This document shows positions 10,852-32,001 of a DNA stretch of 64,000 bases, piece by piece. This DNA is from Defluviitaleaceae bacterium (GTDB lineage: Bacteria > Bacillota > Clostridia > Lachnospirales > WRAX01), in assembly GCA_009784615.1 (NCBI GenBank), contig WRBJ01000001.1, positions 72,810 to 136,809 on the forward strand. Reading direction: 5' to 3'. Under the pieces are notes generated by a model. It was not told the DNA's origin, ran no database searches, and worked only from the letters and a program-made list of their open reading frames with translations. How positions within the stretch are numbered: the first letter of the stretch is position 1; every line of letters begins with the position of its first letter. The translations under genes and the position numbers were made by a program.

Positions 10852-11514
10852 TTACATATTTAAGTCACTTTTTCCTAAATTACAAACTGAACAAAGTGTC
10901 TGTAAGTTCTCATAAAGTGCTGTGCCACCTTTGGCGCAAGGAACAATATGATCTATATGTAATTCCACTTCTGGGCTACTTGCAGGTGAGCATCCACAAA
11001 TTTTACATTTGAAATTATCTCGTTTCATAACCATAAATCTCATTCTATAATTTATGGTGCGAGGATTTGTTTGAGGCTTATTCAATGCGCTAGATTCAAT
11101 AATTTCACCATCCATATGTTCAACAAATGCAGTTAGTGCGTTATAATATGTGCCAAAACGTTTTTCATATGTTCCTACAGAAAAACGAGATAATGGTTTA
11201 ATAATTTCATGATATTTAGGTTGTCTACCAAAGTGTCGCCAAATATTTTCTAGATTTTGAAATAGTTCTTCGTTTGGAATATTTAAGGGACTTCTTGATA
11301 CCTGTAGTCCAGCCCGCTCTAAGCATAAGAACCACGAGCCTATCTTCCTTGTCAGAGTAGACGGGTGATATTTGCTATGAACTTTGTATTCATCCATTGT
11401 AATAGTCTCTTTATTTAACTTCAATGCAACACTCTTCAAATCACGTAGCATTTCCTCAGATGAGGTATTCCTATTATATTTTATAAGTTCAAATCGATCA
11501 CTCAAAATTACCAC
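10852..11514 (-). CDS. HNH endonuclease with two N-terminal homing-endonuclease-associated repeats
   Basis: C-terminal CKICG...HIDHIVPCAKGG...NLQTLCSVCNLGKS is an HNH/zinc motif. Two roughly 50-aa helical repeats precede it. Confidence 0.8.
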   Translation of the reverse strand: MVILSDRFELIKYNRNTSSEEMLRDLKSVALKLNKETITMDEYKVHSKYHPSTLTRKIGSWFLCLERAGLQVSRSPLNIPNEELFQNLENIWRHFGRQPKYHEIIKPLSRFSVGTYEKRFGTYYNALTAFVEHMDGEIIESSALNKPQTNPRTINYRMRFMVMKRDNFKCKICGCSPASSPEVELHIDHIVPCAKGGTALYENLQTLCSVCNLGKSDLNM

Positions 11515-16663: not shown

Positions 16664-16676
16664 GGGAGGTTTGTCG

Positions 16677-18773
16677 ATGGGCAAAATCAAATTTATCGAC
16701 CTTTTTGCAGGGATTGGCGGTATACGTCTAGGTTTTGAAAGGGTTTTTGGTGATATGGGCAAAACGGTTTTTGTTAGTGAATGGGATTTGAATGCACAAC
16801 AGACATATAGAGCGAATTTTGGTAAAGAAATTGAAATTGCAGGCGATGTTACGTTGATTGACGAAAAAGATGTTCCTGCCTTTGATATTTGTCTAGCAGG
16901 TTTTCCTTGTCAGGCATTTAGTCTGGCGGGAAGTCGTAAAGGTTTCAAAGACAGCTTCAAAGGAAAAACAAGGGGTACATTGTTTTTTGATGTGGCAAGA
17001 ATTTGTTCCTTTCATAAGCCAAAAGTAATTTTTTGTGAAAATGTTAAAGGGTTGGCTATACACGACAAAGGCAGGACTTACAAAATTATTAAAAGCACGT
17101 TGGAAGAATTGGGATATACAGTGTATGAAAAAATACTCAACAGTAGGGATTTCGGTGTTCCGCAAAATCGTGAACGTATTTACATCGTAGCTTTTAGAAA
17201 TGATATTGACACAAGAACATTTAGTTTTCCTGAGCCAATAAATTCCAATATGCGAATTAAAAATATAATTGAAGAAACCCCTGTTTCGGCTAAGTATTAT
17301 TTGAGCGATGTCTATATCGAAACTTTACGAAGACACAAAGCTAGGCATAAGGAAAAAGGGAATGGTTTTGGATATGAAATTCGTGACTGGAATGATGTAG
17401 CAGGTACTATAGTATGTGGTGGTATGGGTCGAGAACGCAATTTGATAATTGACAAACGACAAACAAACCTAAATCCCATAACAAATATTAAGGGCACAAT
17501 TAACAACGAAGGCATACGAAAGATGACGCCTAGAGAATGGGCAAGATTGCAGGGTTATTCTGATGATTTTATTTTGACACTTGCAGATACACATTTGTAT
17601 AAACAATTAGGCAATTCTGTAACAGTGCCTGTTATACAAGCCATTGCAGAAAAAATAAAGCACACACTCAATAACCAAAGGGAGGCAAAGAAAATGGCTG
17701 TTAGAGGCAACAAAGGTGAATGGTCGGAGTTATATGTTTTGCTACGTTTGCTAGCTGAAGGAAATCTTTTTGCGGCAGACAAAAACCTTAATCGCATTAA
17801 AGATATGTTTTTTCCGATTATTAATATAATACGAGAAGAAGTAAAAGGCAAAATTTATGAGTATAGACCAAATCGAGATGATGCTCAAATTGAAATCTAT
17901 TTTAATGATGAGTTTGTATTAAAACTTCCTGCAAAGATTTTTGGCGATGAAGCAAGTAAATTATTTGATAAAATTGTTGCTGGTGGCTCAGGAAGCGGAG
18001 CTTTTGAAATTCCAGAAACGGAGAGTTTTATTAAGAATATTTATATCAATAAACCAAAGGCTGGCACTTCAACTAAATCTGATATGAATATCCAATTGCA
18101 CGATGTTAATACGGGGTTTGAAAATATTGTGGGTTTTAGTATTAAGAGCCAGATGGGTAGCCCTTCTACGCTTCTTAATGCAGGAAAATCAACAAACTTT
18201 ATTTATAAAATAAAAGGGATAGACCATAATAGAATTGGAGAAATAAATGCTATAGATACCCAGACTAAGTTAAAAGACCGCATAAACAGTATAGTTGATT
18301 TGGGAGGAGAATTTATTTTTGAAAATACAGATAACGCCAATTTTAGTAACAATTTATTTATGGTAGATAGCCAGATGCCAATAATTATTTCAGAAATGCT
18401 CGTTGGATTTTACAAAGATGGTGTTAAGAATTGCAAAGAACTGACTGAATATGTTTCAAAAATAAATCCTATTTTACGAGATGAACGTTTTTATCTACAT
18501 AAAATAAAAGAGCTTCTTTGCGCAATAGCTTTAGGTATGAAAACGACATCCATTTGGGATGGGACAGATGAAGCAACGGGTGGCTATATTGTTGTAAAAA
18601 ATGATGGTGATGTGCTTGCTTATCACATCTATAATCGTGATGCTTTCAAAGATTATTTGTTAGATAATACCAGATTGGATAAGCCAAGTAGCACAAGACA
18701 CGGATATGGAGTGCTTTATGAACAGAATGGAGAAATTTATATAAAATTGAACTTACAAATACGATTTAAATAG
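16677..18773 (+). CDS. Fused DNA (cytosine-5) methyltransferase / HpaII-like restriction endonuclease, single polypeptide
   Basis: ATG at 16677 after GGGGAGG. The N-half has C5-MTase motifs in order: [27 protein letters not shown]. From about codon 345, [20 protein letters not shown] starts a roughly 355-aa region that I recall as HpaII-family REase. There is no stop between the halves. Confidence 0.75.
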
Positions 18774-18787
18774 TGAGGACAAAAGAT

Positions 18788-21625
18788 ATGTCGAAGAACA
18801 AAATTGTGATTAAGGGTGCGAGGGAGAATAACCTCAAAAATATTGATTTAGAGATACCGCGGGATGCTATGGTTGTGTTTACGGGGGTGTCGGGTAGCGG
18901 CAAAAGCTCGCTTGCTTTTGAAACTCTTTATGCAGAGGGGCAAAGGCGTTATATGGAGAGCCTGTCGTCATATGCTCGCCAATTTTTGGGGCAGATGGAA
19001 AAGCCTGATGTGGATAGCATTGAAGGGTTGTCGCCTGCTATTTCTATCGACCAAAAATCTACCAACCAAAACCCACGCTCTACGGTGGGGACGGTTACGG
19101 AGATTTATGATTATTTAAGGTTGTTATATGCTAGGGTTGGCGTGCCGCATTGTCCAGAGTGTGGCAAGGAGATTGTGCGGCAGACGGTTGACCAAATTGT
19201 TGACCAAATTTTGGCATTGCCTGAAGGTAGCCGCATACAGCTACTTGCGCCTGTTGTGCGGGATAGAAAGGGCGAACACCAAAAGGTGCTTGACGAAGCA
19301 AAGAAAGAAGGCTATGCCCGTGTACGTGTAAACGGCACGGTGATGGAGCTTGCGGATGATATAAAGCTGGCGAAGAACAAGCGGCATAATATAGATATTG
19401 TGGTGGATAGGATTGTGGTGAAGGCGGGCATTGAGGCACGTTTGAGCCAGAGCGTGGAAACCGTTATGGGTTTGACGGATGGTATACTTGTTGTGGATAT
19501 TGATGGTGGCGAGGACTTGATGTTTTCGCAGAATTTTGCTTGTCCTGAACACGGCGTGTCGCTAAACGAGATAGAGCCTAGGATGTTTTCGTTTAACAAC
19601 CCATCTGGGGCTTGTAGCGAATGTGCTGGGCTTGGGTTTAAAATGGAATTTGACCCAGAGCTTATTGTGCCAAACGCCGATTTGTCGCTTGCGCAGGGGG
19701 CTATTACTGTACCTGGTTATAATAGCGTTGGCAAGACAGATTCTTGGGGTGGGTTTTTCTTTACAGCTTTGGCGAAACGTTATGATTTTAGCCTTAACAC
19801 GCCTTTTAAAAAGTTGCCTATGCAAATTAGAAATCTTATTATGTATGGTAATGACGGCGAGAATTTTCCTGTTGAATTTTTAAATCAAAGAGGCGAAAAA
19901 AGGGTTTATCAAAGCCATTGGGAAGGTATTGTACCGGGTGTTAGCCGCCGTTATAAAGAAACCAACAGCGAATGGAGCAGGCAGAATTATGAGGGTTTTA
20001 TAACAAATATAGAATGTAATATTTGCGATGGCAAACGTCTAAAGCCAGAGATTTTGGCGGTTACTGTTGGCGGGGTTAATATTGCAGATGTTACTGTTAT
20101 GCCCGTTGGGGCATTAGCAAAGTTTTTTAAAGAGCTTGCGCTTGGTGCAACACAGGCTGTTATTGCCGAGCGTATTTTAAAAGAGATTAAGGCAAGAGCG
20201 GGTTTTTTGGTTGACGTTGGGTTGGATTATTTGACGCTGGCGCGCTCTGCGGGGACATTGTCGGGTGGCGAGGCACAGCGCATACGCCTTGCAACACAAA
20301 TAGGTTCTGGGCTTGTTGGGGTTGTTTATATTTTGGACGAGCCATCCATTGGGCTACATCAACGTGATAATGATAAGTTGCTTAAAACCCTTCACCATCT
20401 GCGGGATTTGGGCAATACGTTGATAGTGGTAGAACACGACGAAGACACAATGCGTGAAGCTGACCATATTGTGGATATTGGGCCCGGTGCCGGTGTTAAT
20501 GGCGGCGAGATTGTTTATAATGGTGATATTGCGGGGATTTTGAAAGATGAAGATAGCATTACGGGCGCATATATGAGCGGTCGTATGGCTATACCCTTGC
20601 CAAAAAACCGCAGGCAAATGTGCGATAAGCGTTTGGTGGTAAAAGGTGCGGCGGAGAATAATTTGAAGAATTTGGATGTTGAAATTCCGCTTGGTCTATT
20701 TATTGCTATTACGGGTGTTTCTGGCAGTGGCAAGTCTTCGCTTATCAATGAGATTTTGTATAAACGGCTTGCTAGAGATTTAAACCGTAGCAAAGTAAAG
20801 CCTGGCAAGCACGAAGATATTACAGGGCAGGAGCATTTGGATAAAATTATAAACATCGACCAAAGCCCGATTGGGCGCACGCCACGCTCTAATCCTGCAA
20901 CATATACGGGTTTGTTTGATTTGGTGCGGGATTTGTTTGCGGCAACGCCAGAGGCAAAGGTGAGGGGCTACCAAAAAGGACGTTTTAGCTTTAATGTAAA
21001 AGGCGGGCGTTGCGAGGCTTGCTCTGGTGATGGTATTATTAAGATAGAAATGCACTTTTTGCCTGATATTTTTGTGCCTTGCGAGGTTTGTGGCGGCAAG
21101 CGTTATAACCGTGAAACGCTTGAGGTTAAATATAAGGGTGCGACAATTGCGGATGTGCTTAATATGACTGTGGAAGAAGCATTAGCTTTTTTTGAGAATT
21201 TGCCACGTTTGCGAGATAAGGTGCAGACGCTGTATGATGTAGGGCTGTCTTATGTTAAGCTGGGGCAAAGCTCCACGACATTATCTGGTGGCGAGGCACA
21301 GCGTGTTAAACTAGCGACGGAGCTTTCTAAACGTAGCACAGGGCGTACAATTTATGTGTTAGACGAGCCGACAACGGGCTTGCATATGGCGGACGTTCAT
21401 AAGCTGGTGGATATTTTACAGAAGCTGACGGATGGCGGTAATAGCGTTGTTGTTATCGAGCATAATTTGGATGTTATCAAAACTGCGGATTATATTATTG
21501 ATTTGGGACCAGAAGGCGGACACGGCGGCGGCACTATTGTTGTGCAGGGTACGCCGGAGGAAGTGGCGAAGTGCAAAAAGTCATACACAGGGCAGTATTT
21601 GAAGAAGGTTTTGAAGAAGAAGTAG
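18788..21625 (+). CDS. uvrA: Excinuclease ABC subunit A
   Basis: [21 protein letters not shown], two ABC modules (GVSGSGKSS twice, LSGGEAQR twice), zinc-finger Cys pairs. Confidence 0.95.
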
Positions 21626-21668
21626 TTTAATAGAAATATTTTTTTCTAGCGAAGGGTAGTGTTGTGCT

Positions 21669-22667
21669 ATGCTAAATAAGGTTCAAGAAAAATCATATAA
21701 ATTAATTCAGGCAGATGCACGATTTTTATATAATTTAACAAGAGTGTTTAAAAGCCCTAATGCCCCTAAAAGCAATTACATTATGATGTTGCTACCTTTC
21801 ATTGGTCTCTTTGCTGATGGTTCTGAACAATGGGGAAGAAAGGTTAAAATAGGTGCACCAGTTTTCCAAGATGAGGAAAAAAAGTATTATACGGAAATGC
21901 GTAAATCTATAAAAATGTTCGATATTACCTATGATGAGTTATTCGACACATTAAAAGATACTCTTAATAAAAGCGACAAATATTATTACGATATTCGTAC
22001 TCTTCGTTCAAAATTGTGTGGGATGTATTATAATGCTGGTGTTGATTTGCAGGGTAATACTTTTTGTGGTAATACTATTTTATGTTCAATTTATGCTCCA
22101 TTTTACAAGTTTGGTGACAAACAATATGGTAAAAAAATAAATAACATAAGCGTTGTTGCGGGAAGTCTAGCGGCATTTTATGGTGATAGTAACGCTCAAT
22201 CTTATGGTGTTAATAATAGCTTGACGTTCAGGTCTAAAGATTATCATTTTTTCAGCAAATGTCCTAGCGGCATTAAAGATTATGATAAATTTTTATTATT
22301 TTCTATATTGTGTAGCGTGAATTTTGTGAGAGTTTTTATAAATCAATACTTTGTTGATGAGTTCCCTGCAAAATTACGTTTTGCGTATTTGAAATACTAT
22401 TACTTAACAACTTTAATTCCGCAAATAAACCAAAAACTTGCAACCAATTTCACTATTAATCTTCAATACAAAAATGACAAATTTAGAAATTGTATGGCAC
22501 ATTATGGACTTGGTGCAGTTCTAAAAGAAGATGATATTATTGAGGACGATATGCTTTATGGGCTTTCAAACCTACTTTTAAAGATGTCATATAAAGATAC
22601 AAAAACAGCGATTTATTACGAATTAGATTCATTTTCAAAACAGATAACAGAATATCTGCTTTTATAG
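21669..22667 (+). CDS. AT-rich orphan protein with RNxxxH (HEPN-like) motif, possible Abi-type RNase
   Basis: 332-aa ORF, visibly lower GC than uvrA. FRNCMAHYGLG near the C-terminus fits the HEPN Rx4-6H signature. No TM segment or signal peptide. Confidence 0.5.
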   Translation: MLNKVQEKSYKLIQADARFLYNLTRVFKSPNAPKSNYIMMLLPFIGLFADGSEQWGRKVKIGAPVFQDEEKKYYTEMRKSIKMFDITYDELFDTLKDTLNKSDKYYYDIRTLRSKLCGMYYNAGVDLQGNTFCGNTILCSIYAPFYKFGDKQYGKKINNISVVAGSLAAFYGDSNAQSYGVNNSLTFRSKDYHFFSKCPSGIKDYDKFLLFSILCSVNFVRVFINQYFVDEFPAKLRFAYLKYYYLTTLIPQINQKLATNFTINLQYKNDKFRNCMAHYGLGAVLKEDDIIEDDMLYGLSNLLLKMSYKDTKTAIYYELDSFSKQITEYLLL

Positions 22668-22786
22668 CAACGTTAATGTAGAGTTAGTGCAAATATTGAA
22701 GGGATATTCTCTTGATGATGTTGCTGAAAATATGATAAATGCTTGATATTTGGCGTGGTTTGCTTACAGGAAAGGTTTTGTGATTT

Positions 22787-23389
22787 ATGAAAAAAACATT
22801 ATCTGAAATGACATTAGGGGAGTTATGGGAGTTGTTTCCTGTGATTTTGCTGGGGCATAATTCTCAGTACAAGATATGGTATGAAACTGAAAAGAAAAGT
22901 ATATTGAAAAATATAAATGCTGATGATGTAGTTCGTATTAATCACATAGGTAGTAGCGCGGTAAAAGGCTTGATTGCTAAACCTACTGTAGATATTTTGT
23001 TGGAAGTTGATGGTGGTTGTGATGTTTTGCGCTTGGTTGATGATTTAATTGCCGTCGGTTGGGGGTTGATGAAAAAAGAAAACCAGCCGATGAAAATATC
23101 GCTTAGCAAAGGATATACGCCTGATGGGTATGCCGATAGGGTTTTTCATCTTCATATAAGGTATTTTGGGGACTGGAGCGAATTATATTTTAGGGATTAT
23201 TTAATTGAACATACCGATATTGCGGACGAATATGGGAAGTTAAAGCTACAATTGTTTAACGATTTCAAACATAATAGAGATGGATATACGGAAGCAAAAA
23301 CGGATTTTGTTTTAAAGTATTCTGAAATAGCGAAATGCGAGTTTAAAAATAAATATAGACCAAGATTTGTAATTTGTGAAAATACTTGA
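22787..23389 (+). CDS. GrpB-family (nucleotidyltransferase-fold, UPF0157) protein
   Basis: INHIGSSAVKGLIAKPTVDILLEV and HLHIRYFGDW motifs are typical of GrpB. Confidence 0.7.
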   Translation: MKKTLSEMTLGELWELFPVILLGHNSQYKIWYETEKKSILKNINADDVVRINHIGSSAVKGLIAKPTVDILLEVDGGCDVLRLVDDLIAVGWGLMKKENQPMKISLSKGYTPDGYADRVFHLHIRYFGDWSELYFRDYLIEHTDIADEYGKLKLQLFNDFKHNRDGYTEAKTDFVLKYSEIAKCEFKNKYRPRFVICENT

Positions 23390-23539
23390 TGTTTTGGGTG
23401 ATGTGGTATATACTATGTATAATATATTTTTACGAGGTGATATTGTGGTGATAGAAGCATATGCCCAAAGGATATTGTTGACGAGGTTTTAGAAGTTATT
23501 ATTGATTTTTTTGAGTAAATATACAAAGGATGGGAAATT

Positions 23540-24070
23540 ATGATTTTATCGGGATTGGAAATTGCGAGGCTGGCGAAGATTGGCGAGCAGGTTATTATAA
23601 AGCCGTTTGATGCTACAAGGGTGGGGCCTAATAGCTATGATTTGCGGCTTAATAATGTGTTGCAGGTTTACGAGATACCTGAAGGTGGGCATTTGGATAT
23701 GAAGAAGGATACGCCTGTGCGTGAGGCTATTATACCTGATGATGGCTTTGTGCTACAGCCTGGGCAACTTTATTTGGGTAGTACATTAGAATATACCGAA
23801 ACACACGGTTATGTGCCTATGCTTGAAGGGCGGTCTAGCATTGGGCGGCTTGGGGTTAGCATACATGTTACAGCGGGGTTTGGTGATGTAGGTTTTGCGG
23901 GTTATTGGACGCTGGAAATACATACTTTACATCCCGTAAAAATATATCCTTTCGAGCGTATTTGCCAAATATATTATCACAAAATAGAAGGCGATTATAA
24001 ACCGTACCAAGGGAAGTATCAAAAAAATACAGGAGTGCAAGCTAGTCAAATATACCGTGACCAGAGGTGA
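23540..24070 (+). CDS. dcd: dCTP deaminase
   Basis: MILSGLEI...NSYDLRL...LEGRSSIGRLG...GFAGYWTLE are characteristic dCTP deaminase/dUTPase-fold motifs. Size is 176 aa. Confidence 0.85.
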   Translation: MILSGLEIARLAKIGEQVIIKPFDATRVGPNSYDLRLNNVLQVYEIPEGGHLDMKKDTPVREAIIPDDGFVLQPGQLYLGSTLEYTETHGYVPMLEGRSSIGRLGVSIHVTAGFGDVGFAGYWTLEIHTLHPVKIYPFERICQIYYHKIEGDYKPYQGKYQKNTGVQASQIYRDQR

Positions 24071-31380: not shown

Positions 31381-32001
31381 GTGTTAGAAGATAAACAACA
31401 TAAAAATATTCTGATTGACGAAAGTCAACAAGACAAAAATCGTATAGGCTACATTCGTATAAGCTCTGCAGAAAAAAACGAGCAAAAGCACATAGAAGCA
31501 TTTTCTCATCTTGGGCTTTACAAAATTTATATCGAGCGTGTTTCAATAAAAGACCCGACACGTCCAATTTTACAACAAATGCTGGATGAAGTTAAAAAGG
31601 GTTGTACTGTTTATATCGGAAGTTTTGCACGTTTGGCACGCTCTATAAAAGATTTTCTTAATATTGTAAATGAAATAACACAAAGAGATTCGCATTTAAT
31701 CAGTTTAAAAGAATCTTTTGACACAATGACAGACCGAGGTAGATTGATAATAGAAATTTCGGAGTACATACACGAGTTTGAACGTGAAAATATGCTTCAA
31801 CGCCAGCGTGAAGGCATACAATTGGCAAAATCGCAAGGCAAATTTAAGGGACGTAAAGAAATTCCGCGTCCACAAAATTGGGACGAGATTTATAATCTTT
31901 ACAGAACCCGTAAAATGACAGGCACGCAAGCTATGATACAGCTAGGATTAAAACGAAATACTTTTTATAAATTTGTTAAAAAAGAACGTGAAAATGAATG
32001 A
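31381..32001 (+). CDS. Small serine recombinase (resolvase/invertase family)
   Basis: GTG after AAGGAGG. IGYIRISSAE (catalytic Ser region), SFARLARS, C-terminal HTH (MTGTQAMIQLGLKRNTFYKF). Confidence 0.8.
   Translation: MLEDKQHKNILIDESQQDKNRIGYIRISSAEKNEQKHIEAFSHLGLYKIYIERVSIKDPTRPILQQMLDEVKKGCTVYIGSFARLARSIKDFLNIVNEITQRDSHLISLKESFDTMTDRGRLIIEISEYIHEFERENMLQRQREGIQLAKSQGKFKGRKEIPRPQNWDEIYNLYRTRKMTGTQAMIQLGLKRNTFYKFVKKERENE

Follow-up and report, generated by a model that had tools for sequence, protein, structure and literature searches.

A gene for a protein of 332 amino acids (aa), belonging to an unnamed family, lies at positions 21669 to 22667 of the forward strand of a 64,000-nucleotide (nt) stretch of contig WRBJ01000001.1 from a Defluviitaleaceae bacterium. 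The whole of that stretch (positions 72,810 to 136,809 of the contig) is called the window below, and related loci are cited by number (L001 and so on). We suggest herein that this ATG-start open reading frame (ORF) is a candidate stand-alone effector of the abortive-infection type with a HEPN-like RNase domain, probably independent of metal, a reading to which we assign a probability of about 0.42. A role as a stand-alone phage-defence effector appears probable because the family sits among anti-phage genes and keeps an invariant RNxxxH motif. The observations that carry the proposal are the conservation of this motif, purifying selection, the AT-rich and mobile accessory character of the family, its repeated embedding among defence genes, and the lack of a fixed partner.

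An unnamed family and its RNxxxH motif

The initial annotation of the window regarded the gene as an orphan, which it is not. A word-indexed search returned 243 homologues at E <= 1e-3, and an exhaustive profile search of 1.84 billion representatives gave 321 cluster representatives at the same threshold. Among the best 120 of the 243 homologues, most are 44-77% identical over the full length, and all are nameless or labelled 'hypothetical protein' and carry no Pfam domain; the full-length representatives among those listed are about 310-360 aa long and align end to end. A pattern-based scan of 185,579 species-representative genomes located 57 loci, a count that is a lower bound, nearly all of them in Clostridia, Erysipelotrichaceae or other Firmicutes. 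Four IMG/VR contigs also carry members, and tblastn against sequenced plasmids and cultured phages gave no relatives. All contigs that match the window are identical to it, and selection within the species is for that reason uninformative; dN/dS was therefore taken from the comparison with the 76%-identical homologue in L001, where it is 0.14. The gene is under purifying selection. Family genes are AT-richer than their flanks in 58 of 62 loci (mean GC 0.32 versus 0.40), and the family as a whole is a small, unnamed, horizontally mobile accessory family of gut Firmicutes.

Scans of the window protein against Pfam, NCBIfam, PADLOC, and PHROGs gave no match, and neither a single-sequence nor a profile search of PDB sequences gave a significant one; the best PDB sequence match, the immunity factor IFS (E 0.08), covers the motif only and was taken as chance. 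When a profile of the C-terminal domain served as the query, in the hope of reaching annotated families, the matches were three fragments from within the family and nothing else.

The string FRNCMAHYGLG, which had been noticed near the C-terminus, occupies residues 272-282, and the Rx4H (RNxxxH) motif within it (R273-N274-C275-M276-A277-H278) is encoded at 22485..22502 on the forward strand and is conserved family-wide. In 37 sequences at 44-77% identity, R273, N274, C275, A277, H278, Y279, G280, and G282 are invariant. A wider set of 32 sequences, extending down to ~19% identity, keeps R78, K82, N135, Y240, H278, Y279, and G298 invariant, and P43, G124, T136, G165, D191, C215, N218, Y244, R273, and N274 are at least 90% conserved in it. 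H278 is the sole invariant histidine of the family, and the window protein contains two histidines only; a second Rx4H in that protein (R188...H193) is not conserved. The pattern R[NDH]xxxH occurs in 0.8% of composition-preserving shuffles of the window protein, but a stronger argument for regarding RNxxxH as a functional site is that it is invariant across the family.

AlphaFold2, run on the 37-sequence alignment, produced a single globule, mostly helical with two small beta elements, at a predicted local distance difference test score (pLDDT) of 92.0 and a predicted template-modelling score (pTM) of 0.91. The N-terminal and middle region (residues 1-195; 21669..22253, forward strand) comprises helices and the two small beta elements, carries the conserved R78, K82, G124, N135/T136, G165, and D191, and is proposed as a sensor or regulatory part. 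The C-terminal helical domain (residues 196-332; 22254..22664, forward strand), the HEPN-like candidate catalytic domain, is predicted to consist of helices 205-227 and 233-257, a short helix 270-278, and helices 299-304 and 308-331. Modelled alone, residues 196-332 adopt the same fold (pLDDT 92.2, pTM 0.86). Two long helices and an insert precede the motif, which closes the short helix 270-278 and is followed by a loop before the last long helix.

HEPN domains were defined by two alpha-hairpins, frequently with an insert between helices 2 and 3; by Rx4-6H in which the R is followed by a polar residue (N, D or H), with Ex3[KR] often present in helix 2; and by a motif that ends a helix, ahead of the loop into the final one (PMC3710099). 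The family shows the conserved Rx4H (R273-x4-H278) with N274 after the R (at least 90%), the residue usual at that place in active HEPN sites (PMC3710099), and the order of helices in both models matches the published layout, with a motif helix of 9 residues. An Ex3K pair, E231-x3-K235, is found at the start of helix 233-257 in the close subfamily only (37 sequences; E at least 90%, K invariant), and in the 32 sequences of the wider family only a basic residue at position 237 persists. Similarity in structure or profile to a known HEPN domain was not found. The structural comparison that had been recommended, a Foldseek search of the model for a HEPN core around RNCMAH, gave no match at E <= 0.001 for the whole model (best E 0.32 in PDB and 1.5 in BFVD; template-modelling (TM) scores <= 0.22) or for the isolated C-terminal domain against PDB (best E 3.3, TM < 0.4). 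The top whole-protein matches, G protein-coupled receptors and transporters, were set aside as spurious helical similarity. HEPN entries did occur among the 34 noise-level matches of the domain, namely HepT 7bxo (E 4.1 and 6.5; TM 0.33-0.35) and Las1 7y16 (E 6.8; TM 0.28), which may be a hint at most. The earlier proposal of a HEPN-type effector thus stands as regards the motif, which is real, family-wide, and at a HEPN-like position, and its HEPN fold is unproven; judged from the alignments and models, membership of the HEPN superfamily appears strengthened but not demonstrated.

The N-terminal part seems modular, because in one variant it is replaced by another domain. In P0158, a protein of 435 aa, the first ~95 residues are swapped for a domain in which a PD-(D/E)xK-like motif (ADIYVTD...FIIECKT) can be read by eye. 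Four contigs carry this same ORF (L090:444-1751, also in L091 and L092), and the three named here derive from separate sequencing runs. A 61-aa gene (L090:275-460) with weak RHH/TacA1-type Pfam matches overlaps the start of P0158 by 17 nt, and the two together have what looks like a toxin-antitoxin layout. Another variant, P0149, with an HNH-like N-terminus, was given little weight because it comes from a single contig and appears frameshifted. A PDB sequence search did not confirm the N-terminal domain of either variant. These variants suggest that residues ~113-332 form the core and that the N-terminal helices are a replaceable module. Two odd database matches, P0014 (an internal duplication) and P0213 (a repetitive, spurious match), were set aside.

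Genomic surroundings and a 129-nt element

Neighbourhoods differ even between close homologues; the closest one (76% identity, L001, in a Defluviitaleaceae metagenome-assembled genome (MAG)) lies between genes for an AraC-type regulator and an SDR protein. Neighbour clustering and an all-against-all phmmer comparison of same-strand neighbours revealed no constant partner and no weak relationships. Defence genes recur in these surroundings. The family gene follows hsdR-M-S in L037, is inserted between hsdS and hsdM in L061 (with a 3-nt gap and a 14-nt overlap), and overlaps hsdS in L063, and type I restriction-modification (R-M) genes are also present at L006 and L045. Other recurrent neighbours code for N6/N4 and C5 methylases, Mrr, HerA, a DUF4379/MTES-type protein, PDC-S31/DUF2971, KAP NTPase, AbiGi, integrases, serine recombinases, relaxase and type IV secretion system (T4SS) modules, and TnpB. 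Mobile-element settings are exemplified by relaxase/T4SS in L012, a serine recombinase in L001, and an integrase in L006. In a Pfam census, 148 neighbours matched 127 different families, the commonest being type I S subunit, HTH_3, ResIII, GNAT acetyltransferases, DUF2971, and DDE transposases. The family is recurrently placed in defence islands or hotspots across unrelated genomes.

No nucleotidyltransferase (NTase) family is among the 25 most frequent Pfam families listed for these neighbours, and an association with NTases was not found. In L050 (6942-7982) and L053 (892-1914), a gene of 340-346 aa situated 6 nt upstream of the family member has a weak match to the PADLOC model of AbiEii, a nucleotidyltransferase toxin (E 0.003, residues 73-182), and no Pfam NTase match. 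Judged from that match, it could be the sole NTase-like neighbour of the family, or the match could be due to chance. A Gut-1 small RNA (RF01706, 55.3 bits, above the gathering score) at L027:16825-16899, on the reverse strand ~8 kb from a family member, is probably unrelated.

At about ten loci with different neighbours, conservation begins at the start codon, remains at 0.95-0.98 up to 157 nt past the stop, and then collapses. The conserved core downstream of the gene is an element of ~129 nt, which reads from TGGCAAC-N4-TGGCAAC-AAAAAATC... to ...TGTTTA-N14-GGAGCGAGTGGGAAT. It opens with two 7-nt direct repeats at 11-bp spacing that vary together from one lineage to the next (TGACAAC or TGGCAAC), followed by a TTGACA box, a palindrome with compensatory changes, a GATAAT box, and the invariant end GGAGCGAGTGGGAAT. 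Neither an Rfam match nor a conserved RNA fold was found for it, and readings as an integron attC site, a sigma-54 promoter or an omega-RNA were dropped, as the defining core motifs or structure are absent. We know of no description of this element.

The element directly follows the family gene in at least 14 loci. L021:6508-6636 is a typical copy, and others are found in L022-L023, L025-L027, L031-L035, L039, and L060. Copies bracket the family gene on both sides in L064 (7063-7192 and 8281-8450), follow two- or three-gene blocks in L024 (8655-8785), L040 (5750-5880), and L075 (965-1119), and lie between Thoeris ThsA and AbiGi in L078/L079 (L079:3106-3235). No copy is present in the window. 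A metagenome scan found the element in at least 120 contigs, and 121 unique copies (L094-L217) were analysed. Their edges are sharp on both sides. The gene just upstream is co-oriented with the element in 100 of 109 cases, at a median gap of 35 nt, and the ORFs that flank the 121 copies fall into 138 clusters, of which 103 are singletons. Recurrent upstream genes code for a Fic protein (8uqu, E 2e-85) and a homologue of TIR cyclic-ADPR synthase (9vyl, E 5e-40), and a type IIG methylase, HsdR, an AAA ATPase, and an AbiEi-like protein were recognised there by eye. Downstream, an XRE/controller-type HTH gene is found 15 times and a tyrosine integrase 4 times (PDB matches including 3nkh 'Integrase' and 6emy 'Int protein').

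Its sequence and company suggest that the 129-nt element marks the edge of a cargo hotspot that belongs to integrative elements of gut Clostridia. Because the element that trails the family gene elsewhere trails Fic, TIR, Thoeris, and R-M-like genes, the family occupies an interchangeable slot for defence cargo, and membership of the hotspot provides independent support for a defence role. In gut Clostridia, the element could also be used to find defence cargo by sequence, in the way that P2/P4 hotspots or integron attC sites are used elsewhere; although a by-product of this study, it is perhaps more useful than the 332-aa gene itself. In L006, L007, L044, L045, L048, and L051, the stop codon of the family gene is directly followed by ~64 nt conserved at 80-100% identity, a stretch that has no relation to the 129-nt element.

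Proposed mechanism and competing explanations

The proposed product is a cytoplasmic, single-gene anti-phage effector of ~330 aa from a horizontally mobile family. Its C-terminal domain would form a HEPN-like active site on R273, N274, and H278, to which Y279, Y240/Y244, R/K237, and N218 may contribute. Like the HEPN enzymes that have been characterised, the protein would form a dimer that brings two motif copies together, and the dimer would cleave tRNA, mRNA or rRNA independently of metal to give products that end in 2',3'-cyclic phosphate. Residues 1-195 would suppress this activity as long as no phage cue has been sensed. The RNase chemistry, the dimerisation, the triggering by phage, and the defence phenotype are all features that we infer.

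The closest parallel in logic may be HepS, a solo HEPN protein of the Salmonella prophage Gifsy-1 that is produced constitutively and becomes active when a phage tail protein triggers it (PMC13043305). Like HepS, the family consists of a single gene with no obligatory partner, has one Rx4H with a polar residue after the R, and travels with the accessory or defence cargo of mobile elements; by analogy, it may likewise be constitutive and silent until a phage protein is sensed, whereupon RNA cleavage would lead to abortive infection. In contrast to HepS, the 332-aa protein carries a large additional part, at its N-terminus and middle, with conserved residues of its own, and there is no sequence similarity between the two. 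Nor did Foldseek give a significant match, although the PDB library extended to April 2026 and the HepS paper cites a PDB entry (PMC13043305). The lactococcal proteins AbiD/AbiF (Abi_2), AbiU2, AbiJ, and AbiV (PMC3710099) resemble the family in coming from Firmicutes, in being all-helical with Rx4-6H, and in lying often in or near R-M operons and on mobile elements; the role in abortive infection is theirs. Yet no Abi model of Pfam or PADLOC matches any of the 32 members. Several Abi systems, moreover, need an RNA component (PMC13064643), whereas Rfam searches and a fold analysis of the 3' tail found no conserved structured RNA with this family.

HEPN families are tightly linked to R-M operons (PMC3710099), and the members inside hsd operons (L061 and L063) occupy the classic position of PrrC, a HEPN anticodon nuclease (PMC3710099). 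Most members, including the window copy, nonetheless lie outside R-M operons, and no NTPase motif or match was found in the family. PrrC and RloC themselves have an N-terminal ABC-type ATPase domain. In L012-L015, a gene recognised as AbiGi by Pfam and PADLOC lies 18 nt upstream of the family gene on the same strand, an arrangement confined to one locus group. AbiGii, the second component of the AbiG system, is partially similar to AbiUii, a predicted HEPN protein (2026 review, PMC13064643). Since no Pfam or PADLOC model matches the family, it has no match to such AbiGii models as those libraries hold. Assignment to AbiG (AbiGi + AbiGii) was rejected, given also that this AbiGi subfamily is normally solo and that the window copy follows uvrA. 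The adjacency is instead regarded as two independent defence genes stacked together, because the AbiGi subfamily is usually solo. That subfamily, ~270 aa long and from Firmicutes, is found between hsdS and hsdR, beside Thoeris ThsA/ThsB, or in a prophage-like lysis region (L080:3501-4328, L081:3501-4328, L079:3501-4430, and L082:3501-4301); its usual solo state is hard to reconcile with the label 'antitoxin' that AbiGi carries, which implies a system of two genes.

The initial annotation paired the protein with the product of the next gene, of the GrpB family, as a HEPN toxin with an NTase-fold antitoxin. Modules of this kind (HEPN-MNT) are common, and the MNT acts in them by adenylylating the toxin (PMC7641770). 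The two genes are adjacent on the same strand, 119 nt apart, an arrangement that is identical in four other contigs of the same organism; the RNxxxH-type motif is shared with HepT, and HepT 7bxo was among the top noise-level matches. Nonetheless, the co-occurrence survey found no GrpB homologue in any of 76 related loci with family members (934 kb in all), the NTase families are missing from the most frequent neighbours as described above, and the 76% homologue has an AraC-type regulator and an SDR gene at its sides instead. The two genes also differ in GC (0.343 for GrpB versus 0.302), and HepT, at ~130 aa, is much the smaller protein. The pairing with GrpB is essentially refuted, and a pairing with any other NTase is not supported.

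Several points weigh against a HEPN RNase. Two confident models have no significant structural neighbour in PDB or BFVD, the motif helix has just 9 residues, and the loop after it is long. The C-terminal domain, as modelled, may have another helical fold, with no more than a short motif in common with HEPN. In three divergent members the sequence is FCNCMRHY, where Cys replaces R273 and the Arg has moved four places, to position 277. The 32 divergent relatives, searched singly against Pfam and PADLOC models or as a profile against PDB, gave nothing, with no similarity to a HEPN family. Many conserved polar residues (R78, K82, N135, and D191) are far from the motif in sequence, and their spread suggests a more elaborate single-chain pocket than a minimal HEPN site. 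The defence role, moreover, rests on guilt by association, and the window gene occupies a stable chromosomal spot that is kept across identical contigs from several samples. The models that lack a neighbour and the polar residues conserved across the whole chain would suit a conflict gene of a new helical fold in which RNxxxH is convergent, with a pocket formed by R78, K82, N135, D191, N218, Y240, Y244, R273, H278, and Y279 that takes another substrate (DNA, a nucleotide or NAD+, for example) or serves to bind a phage protein. The defence context fits such a gene equally well. We nevertheless consider this main rival somewhat less likely than the HEPN reading, as the motif has the exact HEPN form (R, N, four-residue spacing, H), stands at a helix end before the last helix as in HEPN, and supplies the only invariant histidine. 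HEPN domains are, in addition, notoriously divergent, and many families in the defining survey were recognised at HHpred probabilities of 75-98% only (PMC3710099).

A selfish or maintenance function for mobile elements, as an addiction toxin, an anti-defence protein or a factor of integrative elements, appears improbable. Modules of integrative and conjugative elements (ICE), integrative and mobilizable elements (IME) or prophages are frequent nearby (L012, L001, and L006), the gene and the 129-nt element move together, close to integrase or XRE genes, and the fusion variant P0158 has its toxin-antitoxin-like layout. However, the family is also found inside chromosomal type I R-M operons and, in the window, at a site with no mobile-element gene nearby; the same slot is filled by TIR, Thoeris, R-M, and Fic defence genes; and most copies have no detectable cognate antitoxin. 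An ordinary housekeeping gene, or a lineage-specific metabolic one with no role in conflict, might be supposed from the stable position near the core genes uvrA, dcd, and valS in the window organism. That supposition is essentially excluded by the patchy distribution (57 loci, as a lower bound), by unrelated neighbourhoods even for close homologues, by a composition that deviates from the flanks in 58 of the 62 loci, and by repeated placement in R-M operons and cargo hotspots.

It is also conceivable, if quite unlikely, that the family represents a new effector class, in which an independent helical fold has converged on R-N-x3-H within a larger pocket (R78, K82, N135, D191, and Y240). In gut Clostridia, such effectors would be interchangeable cargo of integrative elements, placed at a boundary (the 129-nt element) that had not been described before. 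If the HEPN-like reading is correct, a compact one-gene defence effector would be added from anaerobic gut and termite-gut Firmicutes. These bacteria are poorly covered by defence catalogues, which were built mostly from Proteobacteria and Bacilli. With an invariant motif and a confident structure that has no known neighbour, the family makes a test case for the extent of the HEPN superfamily, and also for how a solo effector is kept inactive when no antitoxin is there to restrain it.

The window locus

In the window, the gene is markedly AT-rich, as had been claimed: its GC of 0.302 (GC3 0.241, z = -2.6) is the lowest of the 45 genes called, and the recommended comparison with the flanks gave 0.457 for uvrA. 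The spacer from the uvrA stop (21625) to the gene is 43 nt long (21626..21668, forward strand) and contains a purine-rich GAAGGG box; the start position given earlier was right, and the distance of 44 nt was one too many. A terminator scan of 21400-23700 gave no terminator-like site, and the gene is probably co-transcribed with uvrA or transcribed just after it, to judge from the sequence. The earlier statement that the protein has neither a signal peptide nor a transmembrane segment holds. Its N-terminus is polar, with no signal-peptide-like start, and there is no convincing transmembrane segment because the most hydrophobic stretch (maximum 19-residue hydropathy 1.58) is a helix buried in the AlphaFold model.

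On the other side, a spacer of 119 nt rather than 120 (22668..22786, forward strand) separates the gene from the GrpB-family gene (22787..23389, forward strand; PF04229, E 2e-38), which is a neighbour only and outside the system. The 20-codon ORF VQILKGYSLDDVAENMINA* reported in this spacer is indeed present (22688-22747) and encodes 19 residues. It was presented as a relic of past rearrangement, a view that does not hold: the peptide VQILKGYSLDDVAENMINA has no significant match to any ORF in the 76 related loci, and the ORF is indistinguishable from a chance ORF in an AT-rich spacer and gives no evidence of rearrangement. Descent from the sigma-like gene found downstream in L006/L007 was rejected, as there is no significant similarity. 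The spacers on both sides show no DNA similarity to the related loci, and Rfam gave no match near the gene.

An R-M fusion lies on the other side of uvrA, as had been stated. This gene (16671..18773, forward strand; GC 0.346) codes for a C5-methylase/HpaII-endonuclease fusion of 700 aa, with PF00145 at residues 6-331 (E 2e-95) and PF09561 at residues 347-699 (E 4e-120), both complete, an M.HpaII-like methylase, and PADLOC matches MTase_II and REase_II. It is an independent defence gene, wedged between uvrB (stop 16663) and uvrA, the start of which (18773) has one base in common with the fusion stop. HpaII-type methylase and endonuclease are usually encoded by separate genes, and a fused form inserted into a uvrBA pair is, as far as we know, unusual. 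Two low-GC insertions, this fusion and the 332-aa gene, therefore flank the core gene uvrA, and the term 'small defence islet' used for the region is reasonable for those two; nothing ties GrpB to either of them.

The order uvrA - 332-aa gene - GrpB - dcd recurs in the four other contigs of the same organism, all of them sequence-identical to the window, and uvrB and the R-M fusion are also visible in L085. The samples with such contigs include the source of the Defluviitaleaceae MAG that carries the 76%-identical homologue. The window copy is a fixed, solo, low-GC insertion beside core genes, between uvrA and GrpB. Elsewhere in the window, two other small accessory genes of low GC were seen: an HNH endonuclease with homing-endonuclease-associated repeats at 10852-11514 on the reverse strand (PF18780 and PF01844; GC 0.344), and a serine resolvase at 31381-32001 on the forward strand (PF00239; GC 0.343).

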